From positions 122,514 through 186,513 of the forward strand of contig JAFSNK010000021.1 of NCBI GenBank assembly GCA_017447445.1: DNA of 64,000 nt, read 5' to 3'. A program made the position numbers and the translations under genes. How positions within the stretch are numbered: position 1 is the stretch's first letter; each line of letters begins with the position of its first letter. The notes beneath the pieces were generated by a model, which was not told the origin of the DNA, did not search any database, and saw only the letters and a program-made list of their open reading frames with translations. Shown here piece by piece: positions 48,756-54,556 of the stretch. The DNA is from Clostridia bacterium (GTDB taxonomy: Bacteria; Bacillota; Clostridia; Oscillospirales; CAG-382).

Positions 48756-49928
48756 ATGAATTACGCCGAAGAATCGTTAAAAAAGCATTATGAATGGAAA
48801 GGCAAGCTGGAAACCGTGCCGAAAATGGCGGTCAATAACAGCAAAGACCTTTCGCTTGCATATACTCCCGGCGTGGCGAGCGCCTGCTTAGAGATACAGA
48901 AGGATCCCGAAAAGTCCTACGCCCTTACCGGGCGCGGGAATCTTGTGGCGGTCGTTACGGACGGCACGGCGGTGCTCGGATTGGGAGATATAGGTCCGGA
49001 AGCCGGTATGCCCGTAATGGAAGGCAAATGCGTACTTTTTAAGACCTTCGGCGGCGTCGACGCGATCCCGCTTTGTATCCGCAGCAAAGATACGGATGAG
49101 ATAGTGAACACCGTTGCCCTGCTTGCGGGCAGCTTCGGCGGTATAAATCTGGAGGACATCGCGGCTCCGCGCTGCTTCGAGATCGAAAAAAAGCTTAAAG
49201 AAAGATGCGATATACCGGTCTTTCACGACGATCAGCACGGCACGGCGGTGGTGGTGCTGGCGGCGCTGTTAAACGCGCTGAAGGTCTTGGGCAAAGAGAT
49301 CGGCAGAATAAAAGCCGTGATAAACGGAGCCGGGTCCGCCGGGATAGCAATAGCAAAACTGCTTCTGTCCGCCGGACTTAAAAACCTTGTTTTGTGCGAT
49401 AAACAAGGGATTCTCTGCGAAGGCGACGCCTCGCTCAATCCCGCGCAGGCGGAAATGGCGAAATCCACCAACCGCGAGCATAAAAACGGAACGCTGGCGG
49501 ATGCGTTTGTCGGCGCCGACCTGTTCATCGGCGTTTCCGCGGGCAACCTCGTTACGCCCGATATGGTCCGCACAATGGCGCCGGGCGCCGTTGTGTTTCC
49601 GATGGCAAACCCCACGCCGGAAATAATGCCGGAGCTAGCGCTGGAAGCCGGAGCCGCCGTGGTGGGCACCGGACGCAGCGATTACCCCAACCAGATAAAC
49701 AACGTTCTGGCGTTTCCGGGTATTTTCCGAGGCGCGCTGGACGTCCGCGCACGCGAGATCAACGAGGAAATGAAGCTTGCCGCCGCCTATGCGATCTCCG
49801 GCCTCGTTTCGCCCCGGGAGCTTTCGGCGGATCATATCCTGCCGCTCGCCTTCGATCCGCGTATCGGGCCCGCCGTGGCTTCCGCAGTCGCCGACGCCGC
49901 GCGCAGGACCGGCGTCGCAAGGATCTGA
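48756..49928 (+). CDS. NAD(P)-dependent malic enzyme
   Basis: AYTPGV, INLEDI, FHDDQHGT, GRSDYPNQINN. Confidence 0.93.
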   Translation: MNYAEESLKKHYEWKGKLETVPKMAVNNSKDLSLAYTPGVASACLEIQKDPEKSYALTGRGNLVAVVTDGTAVLGLGDIGPEAGMPVMEGKCVLFKTFGGVDAIPLCIRSKDTDEIVNTVALLAGSFGGINLEDIAAPRCFEIEKKLKERCDIPVFHDDQHGTAVVVLAALLNALKVLGKEIGRIKAVINGAGSAGIAIAKLLLSAGLKNLVLCDKQGILCEGDASLNPAQAEMAKSTNREHKNGTLADAFVGADLFIGVSAGNLVTPDMVRTMAPGAVVFPMANPTPEIMPELALEAGAAVVGTGRSDYPNQINNVLAFPGIFRGALDVRAREINEEMKLAAAYAISGLVSPRELSADHILPLAFDPRIGPAVASAVADAARRTGVARI

Positions 49929-50026
49929 TATTATTTGCGGATAAGCGGGCTTTCGCCGAAGCCCGCTTTTAGCTTTGCGAATAAAATAAATAATTCGCCG
50001 ATATACAATCTTTTGCCGCAAATCAC

Positions 50027-50055
50027 TTGACAAGCGATATTGTTTATGCTATAAT
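50027..50055 (+). promoter_or_regulatory. tRNA-Pro promoter
   Basis: TTGACA-17-TATAAT. Confidence 0.85.
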
Positions 50056-50076
50056 TCACGCGTTGACGAAAAATAT

Positions 50077-50153
50077 CTGGGTGTGGCGCAGTTTGGTAGC
50101 GCGCTACCTTGGGGTGGTAGAGGCCGCTGGTTCAAGTCCAGTCACTCAGACCA
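50077..50153 (+). tRNA. tRNA-Pro(GGG)
   Basis: Cloverleaf; anticodon arm CTACC-TTGGGGT-GGTAG; CCA end. Confidence 0.96.
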
Positions 50154-50363
50154 TGCTGAGTGTTCATAACGCAAGTGAGTTATGGACACTCAGCTTTTTT
50201 ATATTTTTTATATTTGTTACTGCTTGCAGGCTCGATTGGGCCTGCTCTTTTTCTTTCAGCGGATATTGCAGGTTAAGCGGTTTTATAAAGCGCGTAACGT
50301 AACCCACTATGACACTTTCACCCGGGCTGAAAAGATTCAATTCGGTTTATATTGATAATTCTC

Positions 50364-50556
50364 TTGATTTTAGCAAAAATATGTGCTAAAATGAATGTGC
50401 GACACAATTCTATATCGCCTCTATTAATGAGAGACCGCATTTTTATTTGGTAAAAATGCACTCTCTTTTCGTGCGTCTCTCATAGATGGCGGAATTGTGT
50501 CGCAGCAATCGGAGTTGTGCGTTTTTCGGTGCGTAGCTCCGGCTGCGCACTTTTTT
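50364..50556 (+). promoter_or_regulatory. Promoter plus structured attenuator-type leader
   Basis: TTGATT-17-TAAAAT; 13-bp stem 50398-50410/50492-50504; terminator 50529-50556 with competing strand 50511-50520. Confidence 0.72.
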
Positions 50557-50577
50557 ATTCAATAAGGAGAAAGAAAA

Positions 50578-52416
50578 ATGCAAGAACTGAAACTGACGGG
50601 CTTTCCGTCCATCGACAAGCCGTGGCTGAAATACTATAAAGAAGGCGCTGAAGAAAGAGCGCTCAATATCCCTGAAAACAAAACCGTTTGGGACGTTATT
50701 GAAGAAAAACTATATGAGCATATCAACATTCCTGCAATCGAATACTTCGGCAGAGTCATTTCTCGAAAAGAGTTTATCGACCTTGTTTATACTTGGGCAA
50801 AGGCATTCAAAGCAATGGGCGTAGAAGAAGACGAGATCGTTGCGTATTACGGCCCGTTCTTTCCTGATGTTGGCGCGATGGCGTTTGCGCTGAATATGAT
50901 CGGCGCATGCGCGTATTTCTTAAAACTTGCCATATCACCCAAAGCGCTTGCCGAAGAAACTAAGAATTGTAGATTTGCGATATGCTTTGAGGATATGTGG
51001 AAGAATGTTGCTAATGAGTTTTCAAAAGACCGTTTTAAAAATGTTATCATAATAAACGCTATAGATGGAATGGCAACACCGAAAAAACAAATTGCTTTTC
51101 TTTTGAAAAAGTTAAAGTTCAAATCAAAGAATCAATTCAATGGAGAAAAATACTTTTCTGTCAGAGAGGCAAAGAAACTAGCAAAGACATATACGGGCGT
51201 TGTTAAAGCACAGTTCGCTCCCGATCGCCCCGCTTTTATTACTTCTTCAAGCGGAACTACCGTTAATGGAGTGGTAAAGGGGTGTGTAGCAACCAACGAA
51301 TCGATTGTTTCTCAAATTTTCATAAATGTTAATTCAGAAGCTAAATGCTCCCCCGGGGATACGTGTATGACAAATTTTCCCCCAACAGCTTCGACATCTT
51401 TGGACTGCCTCTTTATAATCCCACTGTTTGAAGGGTTAACGACTATTTTTGATCCACGTGTTTCCGAAAACGATTTTTACAATCAGCTTACCCGCAAAAA
51501 GCCAAATTTAGTCATCGCCACAGGAAGTATGTGGGAAGCTTTCTTTAATACTATTTCTCAAAAGAATCATAAAAATATTGATTTAAGCCATAGTAAATCC
51601 TGGATTATTGGTGGCGAAGGAACAGATATTCAAAAATTTCGAAAATGGAATAATATAGTTTTAAAATCTAACGGAGATAAACTAACATGCGGTTATGGAT
51701 CGTCTGAACTTTTTTCTGCCATTTGTCGCTGGATGTCGTTCATTGAAAATGATTATTCAAAACCAATTATGAGCGTTGGAATTCCATATGTAGGAATTAC
51801 AGTGGGAATATTCGACAAAAACGGAAACGAGAAAAAATATAATCAACGTGGTGAACTATGGATAAAAAGCAAATCCGCGATGAAGTGCTACTACAACAAA
51901 CCGGAACTAACTTCACAGACAAAGATCGACGGCTGGATTCATACCGGTGACCTTGCAGAAATAGATGAGAACGGCTTTGTCTATATTTGGGGCAGAGTAA
52001 AAGATACTGTTGAAGACAATGTAGGAAATAAGCTGTATTTGTTCGATATAGCATATAAAATAAAAGAAAAAGACTTTATTGATGACGCGATCGTTCTGCA
52101 AATGAAAACAAACAAGGAGACTGTTTCGCTTGTTGCGCATATTGTTTGGGACGGAAATCCTTCTGTTGAGGAACAAAAAAAGCATTTTAAAGAACTCAAT
52201 GCGCTTATGGAGGACTACCTTCCGTCGACTTTTGAAATGGCGGCGTATTCCGTCCACAATATTATGCTGCCGTATTCGCCGACTACCTTGAAAAAAGACA
52301 AAAACCGCCTGTCAAAACAAACAGACGGATATATTCAGGTGATTGACGGCGAAATCAAAAACATTAATTTCGTGATGGGTGATAACGATAAATACAAAAT
52401 GATTATCAAGGATTAA
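50578..52416 (+). CDS. Class I adenylate-forming (AMP-binding) enzyme
   Basis: TSSSGTT..KG, GYGSSE, WIHTGD, GR.KD; AAGGAG RBS. Confidence 0.85.
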   Translation: MQELKLTGFPSIDKPWLKYYKEGAEERALNIPENKTVWDVIEEKLYEHINIPAIEYFGRVISRKEFIDLVYTWAKAFKAMGVEEDEIVAYYGPFFPDVGAMAFALNMIGACAYFLKLAISPKALAEETKNCRFAICFEDMWKNVANEFSKDRFKNVIIINAIDGMATPKKQIAFLLKKLKFKSKNQFNGEKYFSVREAKKLAKTYTGVVKAQFAPDRPAFITSSSGTTVNGVVKGCVATNESIVSQIFINVNSEAKCSPGDTCMTNFPPTASTSLDCLFIIPLFEGLTTIFDPRVSENDFYNQLTRKKPNLVIATGSMWEAFFNTISQKNHKNIDLSHSKSWIIGGEGTDIQKFRKWNNIVLKSNGDKLTCGYGSSELFSAICRWMSFIENDYSKPIMSVGIPYVGITVGIFDKNGNEKKYNQRGELWIKSKSAMKCYYNKPELTSQTKIDGWIHTGDLAEIDENGFVYIWGRVKDTVEDNVGNKLYLFDIAYKIKEKDFIDDAIVLQMKTNKETVSLVAHIVWDGNPSVEEQKKHFKELNALMEDYLPSTFEMAAYSVHNIMLPYSPTTLKKDKNRLSKQTDGYIQVIDGEIKNINFVMGDNDKYKMIIKD

Positions 52417-52501
52417 ATCGATTACCACGCACTTGAAAAACAGGTGGAAGAAATGAGCAAGAGATGAGAAATTTTCACTTGCGTTATGAACAATCGGACC
52501 A

Positions 52502-52538
52502 AAAATCCTCGGATCCGTCTGGGATCCGGGGATTTTTT
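52502..52538 (+). terminator. Intrinsic terminator (probably the original tRNA-Pro terminator)
   Basis: AAAATCCTCGGATCC-GTCTG-GGATCCGGGGATTTTTTT. Confidence 0.8.
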
Positions 52539-52630
52539 TGTTTTGAGAACTTTTTTCTTTGCTATTAGATTTTACCTCTTGCCCCAAAAAACTCAGCGCC
52601 GCCGGGCGCAGTCAAAATGCCGGAAACAGA

Positions 52631-52659
52631 TTGACTTTTCGCCGGAAAAACGTTATACT
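52631..52659 (+). promoter_or_regulatory. Sigma-A promoter
   Basis: TTGACT-17-TATACT. Confidence 0.7.
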
Positions 52660-52843
52660 GTTTTGGTATAAAAGGTTTTTAACAGGTGTCAGCCGGATCC
52701 CGCGGAGCGGGGCGATCACATCCCCGGAGCGGGATAAAACCGTAAGGGCGCAGCCGGTTTTATGACTGATGACAGCGAAGAGATATACAAATGCAACGCG
52801 ACGCATCGTCCGTATATTCAACTATGTATGGGGGAATTGAAAC

Positions 52844-54556
52844 ATGAACAAGAATCCAACCGACAGCAATGCAAAAAAGAGCAATCGTCTGCCCGTTATA
52901 ATCGGAGCGGTCGTATTATTGATCATCATCATTATAGTTCTTGCGGTCTGTCTGAACAAATGCGGCGGCGAAACGAACGATCCGTCCGGAGCTCGATCCG
53001 ACGGATCGATAACGGATGATTCCGGATCCGCCGCGTCCGCGGAAACGCCGGGCGCGGAGTCCGGTACGGAGACCGGTACGGAGTCTGAAACGGTTTCCGG
53101 CACTTCTTCCGACGACTCGCCGGCTCACGTTCACACTTTCGGGGACTGGACGGTTTTGAAGGAGCCCGACTGCCTTACTCCCGGCGCGCGCGAGCGCGTT
53201 TGCTCCGCCTGCGGCGAGAAACAGACCGAGGAGCTGTCGCCGCTGGGGCACGAAGGGCACAATAACGAATGTATAAGATGCGGCAAAAAGGCGCTGACGG
53301 CAGATCATATTGGTTTTGCGCCCTATCCCTACGGCGACGGGATGTGGATAACGAGCGTTCACGGTCTGGACGATTCCGATCTGCTGATCCCGGACGTTCT
53401 GGACGGGCAAAGCGTTACCTGCATCGCGGCGCAAGTCTTTGAAGAGAACGAAACGATCGAGACGGTCTCGCTGCCCGACAGCGTCACGCAATTGGGGACC
53501 TTCACGTTTTACCTCTGCCCGAACCTGCGGATGATCCGTTTCGGCAAAAACATCGGCAATCAGTACACCTCGATCACCGGATACTGTCCGAATATCGATT
53601 ATCTGGTCGTCCCGCCCGAAAACACGCTGCTCCACAGCGATCACAACTGCGTGATCGAGACCGAGAGCAAAAGGCTTTTGTACGGGTGCCGCAACAGCAT
53701 CATCCCCGACGACGGAAGCGTTTTGATCCTCGAATACACGTCGTTTCAAGACTGCACGGGACTGACGTCGATAGTCGTTCCGTCGCCCGTGACCACGATC
53801 GAGAATTGCGCTTTCAACAGTTGTGAGAGTCTCGTTTCCATCGAGATCTCCGACAGCGTCACGTCGATCGGAGAGGAAACGTTTTTATTCTGCAAATCCC
53901 TGAAAAACGTGCGCCTGCCCGCGCACCTGAAGGAACTGAATACAGAACTGTTCGAGTTCTGCGAATCACTTGAAGAGATCACGATCCCGGACGAAGTCGA
54001 AGAAATCTACAGCGGGTGTTTCTACGGATGCACGGCGCTCAAAACCGTCCGTCTGCCGGAAAGTCTGAAAACGATCGGCAATTATGCGTTCCAGAAATGT
54101 TCGTCGCTCGAAAGCATCACGCTTCCCTCGGGGCTCACGCATCTCGGAGAGGCGTTCAAGGAGTGCTCGTCGCTGAAATCGATAGTCATTCCCGACGGCG
54201 TGGAGGAACTGTTCACCGGCGCGTTCATCGACTGTACGTCGCTGACCGACGTAAAACTGCCGAAGGACCTGATCAGGGTCCCGAGACTCCTATTCAGCGG
54301 CTGTACGTCGCTGACCTCAGTCGCAATCACGAACGGCAACGAGATCGAGGAGTACGCGTTTTCCGGCTGCACGGCGCTTAAGAGCGTTACGATACCCGCG
54401 TCGGTCAAATACATAAAACAGGACATTTTCGAAAACTGCACGTCGCTTAAAAGCATTAACTATAGGGGCAGCGCGGAGGACTGGACGAAGATCCGCATCA
54501 GCTCTTCCAACGACGTGCTTGAACGCCTCTCGATCGTATACGATTATAAGGAATAA
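52844..54556 (+). CDS. BspA-like (LRR_5) surface protein with N-terminal TM anchor
   Basis: Repeated FxxCxSLxSIxxPxxVxxI; HVHTFGDW..C..RVCSACGE module. Confidence 0.88.
   Translation: MNKNPTDSNAKKSNRLPVIIGAVVLLIIIIIVLAVCLNKCGGETNDPSGARSDGSITDDSGSAASAETPGAESGTETGTESETVSGTSSDDSPAHVHTFGDWTVLKEPDCLTPGARERVCSACGEKQTEELSPLGHEGHNNECIRCGKKALTADHIGFAPYPYGDGMWITSVHGLDDSDLLIPDVLDGQSVTCIAAQVFEENETIETVSLPDSVTQLGTFTFYLCPNLRMIRFGKNIGNQYTSITGYCPNIDYLVVPPENTLLHSDHNCVIETESKRLLYGCRNSIIPDDGSVLILEYTSFQDCTGLTSIVVPSPVTTIENCAFNSCESLVSIEISDSVTSIGEETFLFCKSLKNVRLPAHLKELNTELFEFCESLEEITIPDEVEEIYSGCFYGCTALKTVRLPESLKTIGNYAFQKCSSLESITLPSGLTHLGEAFKECSSLKSIVIPDGVEELFTGAFIDCTSLTDVKLPKDLIRVPRLLFSGCTSLTSVAITNGNEIEEYAFSGCTALKSVTIPASVKYIKQDIFENCTSLKSINYRGSAEDWTKIRISSSNDVLERLSIVYDYKE

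Follow-up and report, generated by a model that had tools for sequence, protein, structure and literature searches.

Upstream of a gene for a 612-aa AMP-binding, acyl-CoA-ligase-like enzyme (its NCBIfam matches to acyl-CoA ligases all fall far under the cut-offs), a Clostridia bacterium carries a leader that combines a promoter, a long hairpin and two mutually exclusive hairpins, one of which is a terminator. Does this leader control the gene behind it and, if so, what does it sense? The DNA analyzed here, which we call the window, is a whole stretch of 64,000 nucleotides, and an earlier note made from its letters had offered two readings of the leader: a ribosome-sensing attenuator read through a leaderless peptide, or an unnamed riboswitch. 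From comparison with related genomes, positions 50398-50556 are very probably a copy of a conserved Clostridia leader that is so far uncatalogued and acts in cis, controlling its downstream gene by transcription attenuation. The second of the two readings thus came closer, the leader being conserved and structured and belonging to no Rfam family.

Layout of the leader in the window

The features of the window copy are as follows.

50364-50392, + strand: promoter, TTGATT-17-TG-c-TAAAAT, sigma-70-type with an extended -10
50364-50369, + strand: -35 box TTGATT, followed by the 17-nt spacer
50384-50392, + strand: TG-extended -10 box, TGcTAAAAT
50397-50453, + strand: GTG reading frame of 18 codons plus stop, VRHNSISPLLMRDRIFIW, private to the window copy and without a Shine-Dalgarno (SD) site
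50398-50556, + strand: leader element, window copy
50398-50410, + strand: P1 5' arm UGCGACACAAUUC, starting at about the predicted 5' end of the transcript and pairing with 50492-50504
50411-50415, + strand: bulge UAUAU (5 nt) between P1 and P2; the family consensus is roughly A..UAU, with columns 16 and 19-21 conserved
50416-50491, + strand: sensor interior, comprising P2, P3 and P4 in the predicted fold
50416-50423/50483-50491, + strand: P2
50428-50435/50475-50482, + strand: P3
50437-50445/50451-50459, + strand: P4, with apical loop UUUGG at 50446-50450
50460-50466 and 50475-50482, + strand: direct repeat on the 3' side of the sensor, ACUCUCU and GUCUCUCA
50452-50466, + strand: acceptor, A5 run plus 3' flank AAAAAUGCACUCUCU, for long-range pairing with the tail
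50492-50504, + strand: P1 3' arm GAAUUGUGUCGCA
50505-50509, + strand: linker GCAAU
50510-50526, + strand: tail CGGAGUUGUGCGUUUUU (17 nt), the strand shared by the acceptor and the 5' half of the terminator
50505-50521/50530-50546, + strand: antiterminator hairpin, loop UUUUUCGG
50528-50537/50542-50551, + strand: intrinsic terminator stem, loop UCCG, with the U-tract (T6) at 50551-50556
50564-52416, + strand: putatively regulated gene, with RBS AAGGAG at 50564-50569 and ATG at 50578

The promoter, upstream reading frame, long and inner stems, terminator and competing hairpin listed in the earlier note all lie where it had placed them. As RNA, the segment 50393-50580 folds at -71.2 kcal/mol (z = -6.5), a stability reached by none of 200 shuffled sequences, and the competing hairpin 50505-50521/50530-50546 is part of the minimum-energy fold of the window copy. 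What the first reading had missed is a long-range helix between the apical acceptor and the tail: the apical AAAAAUGCAC.UCUC (50452-50466) is complementary to GGAG..GUGCGUUUUU in the tail (50511-50526), with a duplex energy of -14.5 to -14.8 kcal/mol. It had instead suggested that GGAGTTGTGC might swap partners onto the 5' arm of P1. Such a swap is possible in the window (-14.5 kcal/mol) but does not extend to the family, where the mean for cognate partners is -5.3, against -5.0 for shuffled ones.

A conserved leader family in Clostridia

When 61 related genomes were searched by BLAST with the leader (188 nt), 18 places matched at E <= 1.6e-4, spread over 16 genomes other than the window's own, and nearly all of them align to the 3' part of the leader. 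These loci share a common plan in which an extended -10 and a gap of about 5 nt precede a 5' arm of the form UGCCAAACAAA, UGCGACACAA or GCUACACA; the interior that comes next varies and has YGRU-AAAAA-YGC at its apex, and after the complementary 3' arm stand ACAAUCGGRGUUUGCGUUUUUCGG, a terminator whose loop is often UUCG, an RBS and a start codon. We built a covariance model, R1, from 13 copies. The window copy scores 136.5 bits against this model (E = 7.5e-31) and is the only one that R1 detects in its genome. In a sample of the order, R1 matched 56 of 151 genomes from 20 of 30 families, with up to eight copies per genome and with copies in tandem, as pairs and one triple (three on G105:C186; two, for example, on G048:C8). 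The class sample gave matches in 41 of 151 genomes, several of them with at least 16 copies, and in the phylum sample only 2 of 151 genomes matched, the window's own and a second genome from its class. Scanning species genomes for the motif gave at least 120 loci.

Among the 80 matches listed, the assemblies are MAGs or come from uncultured isolates, almost all labelled as Clostridia lineages and mostly as Clostridia, Eubacteriales, Acutalibacteraceae, Oscillospiraceae, Ruminococcaceae or Christensenellaceae; among those same matches a few named genera appear in single rows, and the sources are largely animal gut or rumen. In public sequencing runs, related sequence occurs in 19 DNA-type runs and one RNA run, always as contigs. 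Two metatranscriptome contigs carry related copies, although these contigs could be DNA and their ends are unreadable. The module 50495-50559 recurs in many organisms on contigs of three runs.

A check against Rfam, one of those that the earlier note had proposed, gave no match to the element. With Rfam 15, the region 49900-50900 yielded only a tRNA and noise at E values up to 10, and the whole window at gathering thresholds yielded three tRNAs and nothing at the element; other copies of the leader likewise gave no element match, in 18 loci at E up to 1 and in 20 loci at E up to 0.1. A freshwater-2 hit in the window (20.8 bits, E = 1.4) is noise, and a freshwater-2 hit in locus L039, which at 37.4 bits stays under the gathering score of 49.9 and lies 3' of the first gene of that locus, is unrelated. 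A full-text literature search found no description of this Clostridia leader RNA. The part of PMC11109978 that was available makes no mention of it, and in the available part of PMC8040213 we did not find the RNA, nor its motif in seven supplementary files, although the thousands of unnamed candidates of that study may include the leader. The leader is therefore a conserved RNA family with no counterpart in Rfam 15 and, set against the literature as searched, a new class of leader, though the kind of system is known.

To describe the anatomy of the family we fetched 80 further regions. The resulting alignment to the model comprises 104 matches on the sense strand, drawn from 100 loci; it does not include ten of the fetched loci (L136-L145), the 80 motif-scan loci or the class-level loci L266-L275. 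All 104 copies are distinct in sequence. Their lengths, from 135 to 236 nt, fall into two size classes, with 61 short copies that resemble that of the window and 43 long ones in which an additional hairpin makes a three-way junction. Promoter placement is strikingly regular: a -10-like box lies 3-11 nt 5' of the element in 101 of the 104 copies, and among these 101 it ends exactly 5 nt before the first base of P1 in 84 and bears the TG extension in 88. The usual spacing from a -10 box to the transcription start is 6-8 nt. With the -10 ending 5 nt before P1 in most copies, this spacing would put the transcription start at the first bases of P1, approximately at the base of the sensor hairpin.

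Covariation, another check that had been proposed for this locus, is present in all four helices (P1, the long-range helix, the antiterminator and the terminator). Compensatory changes occur at 13 of the 14 pairs of P1 (95.3% of cells paired) and at 8 of the 10 pairs of the terminator (97-99%). The long-range helix, in which the apical A-run and about 10 nt after it pair with the tail that follows P1, has compensatory changes at 11 of its 15 pairs (89-92% paired); at one of these, C-G in 43 copies is replaced by U-G in 40 and U-A in 18. In the antiterminator, formed by the tail with the 5' arm, the loop and the first bases of the 3' arm of the terminator, 7 of 11 outer pairs show compensatory changes (78-86% paired). 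The counts for the long-range helix and the antiterminator were not fitted, because both helices are absent from the structure of the model.

The compensatory types are many and spread over different subfamilies. With P1, long-range helix and terminator taken together, 94.3% of cells are paired, against 82.0% in shuffled alignments, and none of 500 shuffles reaches the observed value; for P1 plus antiterminator the figures are 90.2% and 75.6%, all these shuffle statistics being inflated by the kinship of the copies, which overstates their independence. Sliding the partners of the first structure by 1-3 columns leaves only 38-57% paired. In a bulge-tolerant test, tails preferred their cognate partners, both for the long-range helix (-16.4 for the copy's own partner, -12.3 for non-cognate and -5.4 for shuffled partners) and for the antiterminator (-22.0, -17.3 and -12.6). 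Columns 243-255, in which the UUGU of the P1 3' arm and the ACAA of the linker are 98% pairable, are also correlated; they may be a clade signature and were not used.

Conservation extends to nucleotides as well as pairing. The apical YGRU before the A-run and the AUA of J1/2 are conserved and unpaired, and within P1 the pairs A5-U, A7-U and C8-G recur in 102, 96 and 92 of the 104 copies. In the apical loop, column 115 is G in 101 of 104 copies, and the 4-mer before the A-run is most often UGGU (35), UGAU (21) or CGGU (15 of 104).

Competing helices and the proposed switch

The competition between terminator and antiterminator proposed in the earlier note is borne out by the family, since both helices covary over the 104 copies. 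An antiterminator, a terminator and a U-run are present in every copy, and in every copy a run of at least four U follows a stem of -10 kcal/mol or better. The leader thus has a GC-rich hairpin and U-tract 5' of its gene, as in an intrinsic terminator, together with an alternative helix on the 5' arm of that terminator that excludes it, as in an attenuator. A third helix sequesters the 5' strand of the antiterminator, as in three-helix attenuators, and the conserved, covarying sensor overlaps the expression platform, as is generic to riboswitches. Judged from these pairings, the leader is predicted to be a three-state attenuator of competing helices, because the tail can pair with either partner.

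In the mechanism that we propose, the transcript would begin at the base of the sensor (P1-P4), and the polymerase would then pass P1, the 17-nt tail and the intrinsic terminator. Pairing of the tail with the 5' arm and loop of the terminator would form the antiterminator and allow read-through. Pairing of the tail with the apical A-run and its 3' flank would instead form a long-range anti-antiterminator, leaving the terminator free and stopping transcription. A single unpaired base separates the long-range helix from the terminator, and the long-range duplex reaches -10 kcal/mol or lower in 100 of the 104 copies. The nested minimum-energy fold contains the antiterminator in 64 of the 104 copies; the state with long-range helix and terminator is on average 7.6 kcal/mol lower, a difference taken before any pseudoknot penalty. 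For the window the two states come to -66.4 kcal/mol (antiterminator) and -75.8 kcal/mol (long-range helix plus terminator), again with no pseudoknot penalty. The two states are predicted to be comparable in energy.

How accessible the acceptor is differs between size classes. In long forms, the A-run lies in a hairpin loop (probability of being unpaired 0.85) and its 3' flank forms a stem. In short forms, the A-run lies in a weak A5:U5 stem (0.28 unpaired), the flank is about half free (0.49) and is repeated a few bases further on, and the 5' strand of the inner stem can take either copy of the repeat; in the window, the alternative conformer with the inner stem on the other repeat costs 4.4 kcal/mol. 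The half-exposed acceptor could thus act as a toehold, with the tail invading the sensor stem by toehold strand exchange. The geometry of the short forms is demanding, since some 32 bp of rod separate the acceptor from the tail and the linker measures only 5-6 nt. For P1 and the long-range helix to coexist there, the rod would have to bend sharply, possibly at the conserved bulge that follows P1. In 53 of the 61 short copies the length of P1 correlates with that of the distal rod (r = -0.47), which is probably a boundary artefact.

At roughly 15 bp and roughly -16 kcal/mol, the long-range helix would be too strong to need a ligand. Because it would be stable without ligand, and because the tail is made before its antiterminator partner, we think that termination is the default state. 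An effector that held the apical hairpin closed, or covered its loop, would then give read-through, a direction that we favor slightly over the reverse.

A role for translation in setting the fold had been the first suggestion for this leader. According to that explanation, a ribosome translating the leaderless GTG frame over the 5' arm of P1 would decide which helix forms, and the window frame is indeed real, overlaps that arm and has the UAA within the apical GGUAAAAA as its stop. The family does not share it. An ORF of at least 10 codons starting within -6 to +10 of the element is found in only 36 of 104 copies, an end at the apical UAA in 13 and an ORF with SD and ATG inside the leader in one, and many copies begin UGCCAAAC, which holds no start codon; the family has no conserved short ORF with a start signal. 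Moreover, the window GTG lies 5 nt after the -10, nearer than a usual start site: given that spacing and the usual 6-8 nt, transcription would start at or after its final G. Leaderless GTG starts are poor in any case. The window frame is probably not translated, the small reading frame in the leader is incidental, and attenuation by a leader peptide is very improbable. Known attenuators of that type (trp/his, ermC) resemble the leader in having terminator and antiterminator within a short leader, and the window copy even has a short ORF over its first stem, but differ in that the ORF of the Clostridia leader is neither conserved nor preceded by an SD.

Two further explanations would detach the element from the gene behind it. 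A stand-alone small RNA of about 160 nt, acting in trans or as a protein sponge, would have its own promoter and terminator, its proximity to genes being secondary. Each copy does have a strong terminator and a promoter-like site (-10 boxes in 101 of 104), some copies stand in tandem arrays, and several lack, or seem to lack, a gene: three copies in genome G312 (L277, L278 and L282) are followed by 60-100 nt with a second terminator and no ORF, L293 and L295 by a similar stretch without an ORF, and L038 probably has no gene behind it. Yet 94 of the 104 copies have an SD and ORF at a median of 21 nt, which leaves no room for another promoter, and a conserved antiterminator is sensible only if read-through matters, so that a purely stand-alone RNA is improbable. 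A trans role is possible because a few copies have no gene behind them; some terminated riboswitch transcripts have dual roles, and by analogy a dual cis and trans role of this leader is possible. The least credible alternative, which we consider close to negligible, is a repeat acting at the level of DNA, MITE-like or an invertible segment, whose terminal inverted repeats mimic an RNA stem. Multiple copies bounded by inverted repeats of 13-16 bp (P1) would suit such an element, but the orientation is fixed to promoter and gene in 94 of 104 copies, and copies that are all distinct, rather than near-identical and in either orientation, are not what MITEs or invertons present. The compensatory changes include G-U pairs, which are workable only in RNA, and two further helices that are not palindromic also covary. 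Cis-acting attenuation remains our preferred explanation.

We compared the leader with known systems of similar design. T-box leaders (RF00230) are likewise 5' leaders of Firmicutes with a long sensor hairpin and mutually exclusive antiterminator and terminator, multicopy and sometimes in tandem. The Clostridia leader, however, has no match to the T-box model (E up to 10 in the window and up to 1 in the loci) and no T-box sequence; its apical 4-mer is too variable to pair with tRNA NCCA as a rule; the 43 of 94 downstream proteins with a Pfam name include neither aminoacyl-tRNA synthetases nor families of amino-acid biosynthesis; and a long-range helix to the sensor apex competes with its antiterminator. 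The PyrR-dependent pyr attenuators (RF00515) and similar three-helix systems share with it a strand common to the upstream structure and the antiterminator, and an antiterminator that overlaps the terminator. Unlike them, the leader matches no PyrR site and precedes no pyr genes, and its anti-antiterminator is not a local hairpin but a helix of about 15 bp between the sensor apex and the tail after P1.

In pseudoknot-type transcriptional riboswitches such as ZTP, preQ1-I and c-di-GMP-II, the sensor loop pairs with the tail of the expression platform, and the sensor loop of the leader similarly pairs with a 3' tail that belongs to its expression platform. It differs from them in the length of the helix, about 15 bp rather than a few, in having no Rfam match and in pitting the helix against a local stem, much as in toehold strand exchange. 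The leader thus belongs to none of the pyr, T-box and pseudoknot riboswitch groups: model matches or signatures are lacking, and the genes are the wrong ones. If the proposed mechanism is right, a long-range helix of about 15 bp that competes with both a local stem and the antiterminator would be an unusual design principle.

Downstream genes and candidate effectors

A same-strand ORF with an SD-like site lies behind 94 of the 104 copies, at a median of 21 nt after the element; several of the other ten copies are in tandem or at a locus end. By clustering, the 94 products form 64 groups. Those that Pfam names (43) are distributed as follows, in number of proteins.

BspA-type LRR_5: 9
Zinc-ribbon types: 5
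AMP-binding: 4
GLUG: 3
SHOCT: 3
Cu_amine_oxidN1: 2
SPFH: 2
HTH: 2
One protein each: LiaF, Big_2, CHAP, M23+SLH, NlpC/P60, cohesin, RHS, Flg_new, WG repeats, Branch glycosyltransferase, GYF_2 and DUF2130

The remaining 51 proteins have no Pfam family, and many of them are small, Cys-rich or lipoprotein-like. The downstream genes are diverse, mostly encoding envelope or surface proteins, small proteins and AMP-ligases. The most recurrent is a family of about 40 aa (M-x-D-Y-x-K-M-Y-x-x-L-F-N...) found behind ten copies in two orders, for which Pfam and NCBIfam gave no match. We considered this small protein as a universal trans factor and rejected it, since it was not found in the window's genome (best E = 0.13). 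Behind some other copies in G312, a further conserved hairpin follows the element.

If the leader senses a small molecule, the sensor would be an aptamer, and binding of its ligand would determine whether the tail can reach the acceptor. This is plausible, though we place it somewhat short of an even chance. Copies range from one, in the window's genome, to at least 16 per genome, which is the usual range for riboswitches; a dedicated protein for a single target would be less parsimonious. Tandem copies and the conserved, unpaired YGRU and J1/2 AUA point the same way. Against it, the 94 downstream genes reveal no transporter, biosynthesis gene or operon that would indicate a ligand, the pseudoknots that form on ligand binding in known riboswitches are far shorter than the long-range helix, and the interior varies so widely (135-236 nt) that few conserved positions are left for a binding pocket.

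Candidate ligands would not be nutrients but molecules that report physiological state, such as c-di-AMP or a precursor of the cell envelope. In the order sample, 147 of the 151 genomes, all carriers of the leader among them, have the DAC domain for c-di-AMP synthesis, and the known c-di-AMP riboswitch (ydaO, RF00379) occurs in just four of the 151, none of them carriers; ydaO gave no match to the element at E up to 10. Because DAC is also present in genomes without the RNA, these figures give no positive link. c-di-AMP is possibly the ligand in the sense that nothing counts against it, which is not evidence for it.

Attenuation that depends on a protein, which would bind the apical loop YGRU-AAAAA-YG or P1 and block or promote the long-range helix, is possible but doubtful. 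Analogues for such reading are the PyrR and TRAP leaders. In P1 and in the apical loop it is sequence, and not just pairing, that is conserved, the targets are very diverse, as in a regulon, and a 15-bp helix wants a blocker rather than a stabilizer. However, no candidate protein was found, the protein of about 40 aa being absent from the window's genome, and no Rfam protein-binding leader matches the element. On balance a small molecule is a more likely effector than a protein.

A more far-reaching possibility, which we consider less likely than not, is that the leader is a new and abundant orphan riboswitch class of gut and rumen Clostridia in which a signal of physiological state other than c-di-GMP acts through toehold strand exchange, linking sensor hairpin and antiterminator, to turn on a variable set of genes for surface, cell-wall and small proteins. 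The signal of such a riboswitch could be c-di-AMP, whose known riboswitch is nearly missing from the order, or a cell-envelope precursor. If this is true, a cis-regulatory RNA that ranks among the commonest in gut and rumen Clostridia has so far escaped the catalogues. It would precede the variable surface proteome of mostly uncultured organisms, including BspA-type LRR, GLUG, cohesin and collagen-like proteins, cell-wall hydrolases and many small proteins, and the identity of its signal would show how these bacteria time the display of surface proteins. For annotation, the family would mark promoters, transcript starts and regulated genes in MAGs, and would explain away apparent inverted repeats and short ORFs in such leaders.

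We also considered c-di-GMP. Riboswitches for this molecule are multicopy leaders before genes for surface proteins and adhesins in Clostridia, which makes c-di-GMP-I and -II (RF01051, RF01786) functional analogues of the leader, although it matches neither model. As a general ligand c-di-GMP was rejected: 37 of the 56 carrier genomes have no GGDEF match (E <= 1e-8), compared with 31 of 95 non-carriers, and many of the GGDEF-less carriers are 95-99% complete. The set of downstream genes would itself fit c-di-GMP. The window's own genome holds three c-di-GMP-I riboswitches and 13 GGDEF matches at the default threshold (E <= 0.001).

Genes behind the leader

The gene recurring most often behind the leader encodes a protein of about 40 aa with the pattern M-x-D-Y-x-K-M-Y-x-x-L-F-N-x-x-T-[DE]..., and it occurs in two different orders. 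This family corresponds to no Pfam or NCBIfam family, and a search of the window's own genome did not recover it. It lies in the following loci and, further, in L069, L095, L281, L284 and L286.

Loci encoding the protein of about 40 aa
L047:1306-1431, minus strand
L067:340-468, plus strand
L128:785-970, plus strand
L283:345-464, plus strand
L288:377-487, plus strand

BspA-type LRR surface proteins are the most frequent target class of the leader family in other places, and one is encoded downstream in the window (52844-54556). The 427-nt intergenic stretch that precedes this gene (52417-52843) contains neither a leader copy nor an Rfam match.

Extra hairpin and atypical copies

Four loci of one genome, G312 (L281, L285, L287 and L289), carry a second hairpin, also conserved, past the leader terminator and ahead of the small ORF. 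Its sequence is GUAGGG...(about 50 nt)...CCCUAC, and it had no match in Rfam at E up to 0.1. Five other copies (L277, L278, L282, L293 and L295) have no gene behind them. Each is followed by 60-100 nt beyond the terminator, a stretch that in some of these loci includes sequence resembling the P1 5' arm or the acceptor; in L277, L278 and L282 a second strong terminator and a convergent gene come after it. Possible readings of these five are small RNAs, orphan copies of the leader, or tandem copies that have decayed. The copy in L015 (G019:C22, oriented 1476-1562) is degenerate: P1 persists as a short hairpin, and the tail and terminator are retained, but neither the acceptor nor the interior of the sensor is present. 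This copy precedes an ABC-transporter ATPase gene.

In our alignment of leader copies (A4), columns 242-245, UUGU in the P1 3' arm, can pair with columns 252-256, ACAA in the linker, in 97-98% of copies (about 50496-50499 with 50505-50508 in the window), and the two change jointly among U-A, A-U and G-U. The joint variation may be no more than a clade signature, or it may reflect a base triple or a mini-hairpin that forms as an alternative.

Cyclic dinucleotides and neighboring elements

Across 151 genomes of the window's order, GGDEF proteins were rarer in leader carriers (19/56) than in non-carriers (64/95; odds ratio 0.25), an effect overstated by kinship among the genomes. The known c-di-AMP riboswitch is nearly missing from this sample (4/151), despite a DAC domain in 147 of the genomes. 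The window's genome carries three c-di-GMP-I riboswitches within 6 kb, outside the window.

c-di-GMP-I riboswitches on contig C12 of G000, the window's genome
22632-22705
23550-23626
28147-28220

A freshwater-2-like match in L039 (1161-1248, minus strand; 37.4 bits, under the gathering score of 49.9) precedes the second gene of that locus and is unrelated to the leader.

Upstream of the leader, the window holds a tRNA (50077-50150) whose promoter (50027-50055) is a perfect consensus, TTGACA-17-TATAAT with TG. Two terminator-like hairpins (50155-50194 and 50226-50245) lie 3' of the tRNA, directly upstream of the leader promoter.
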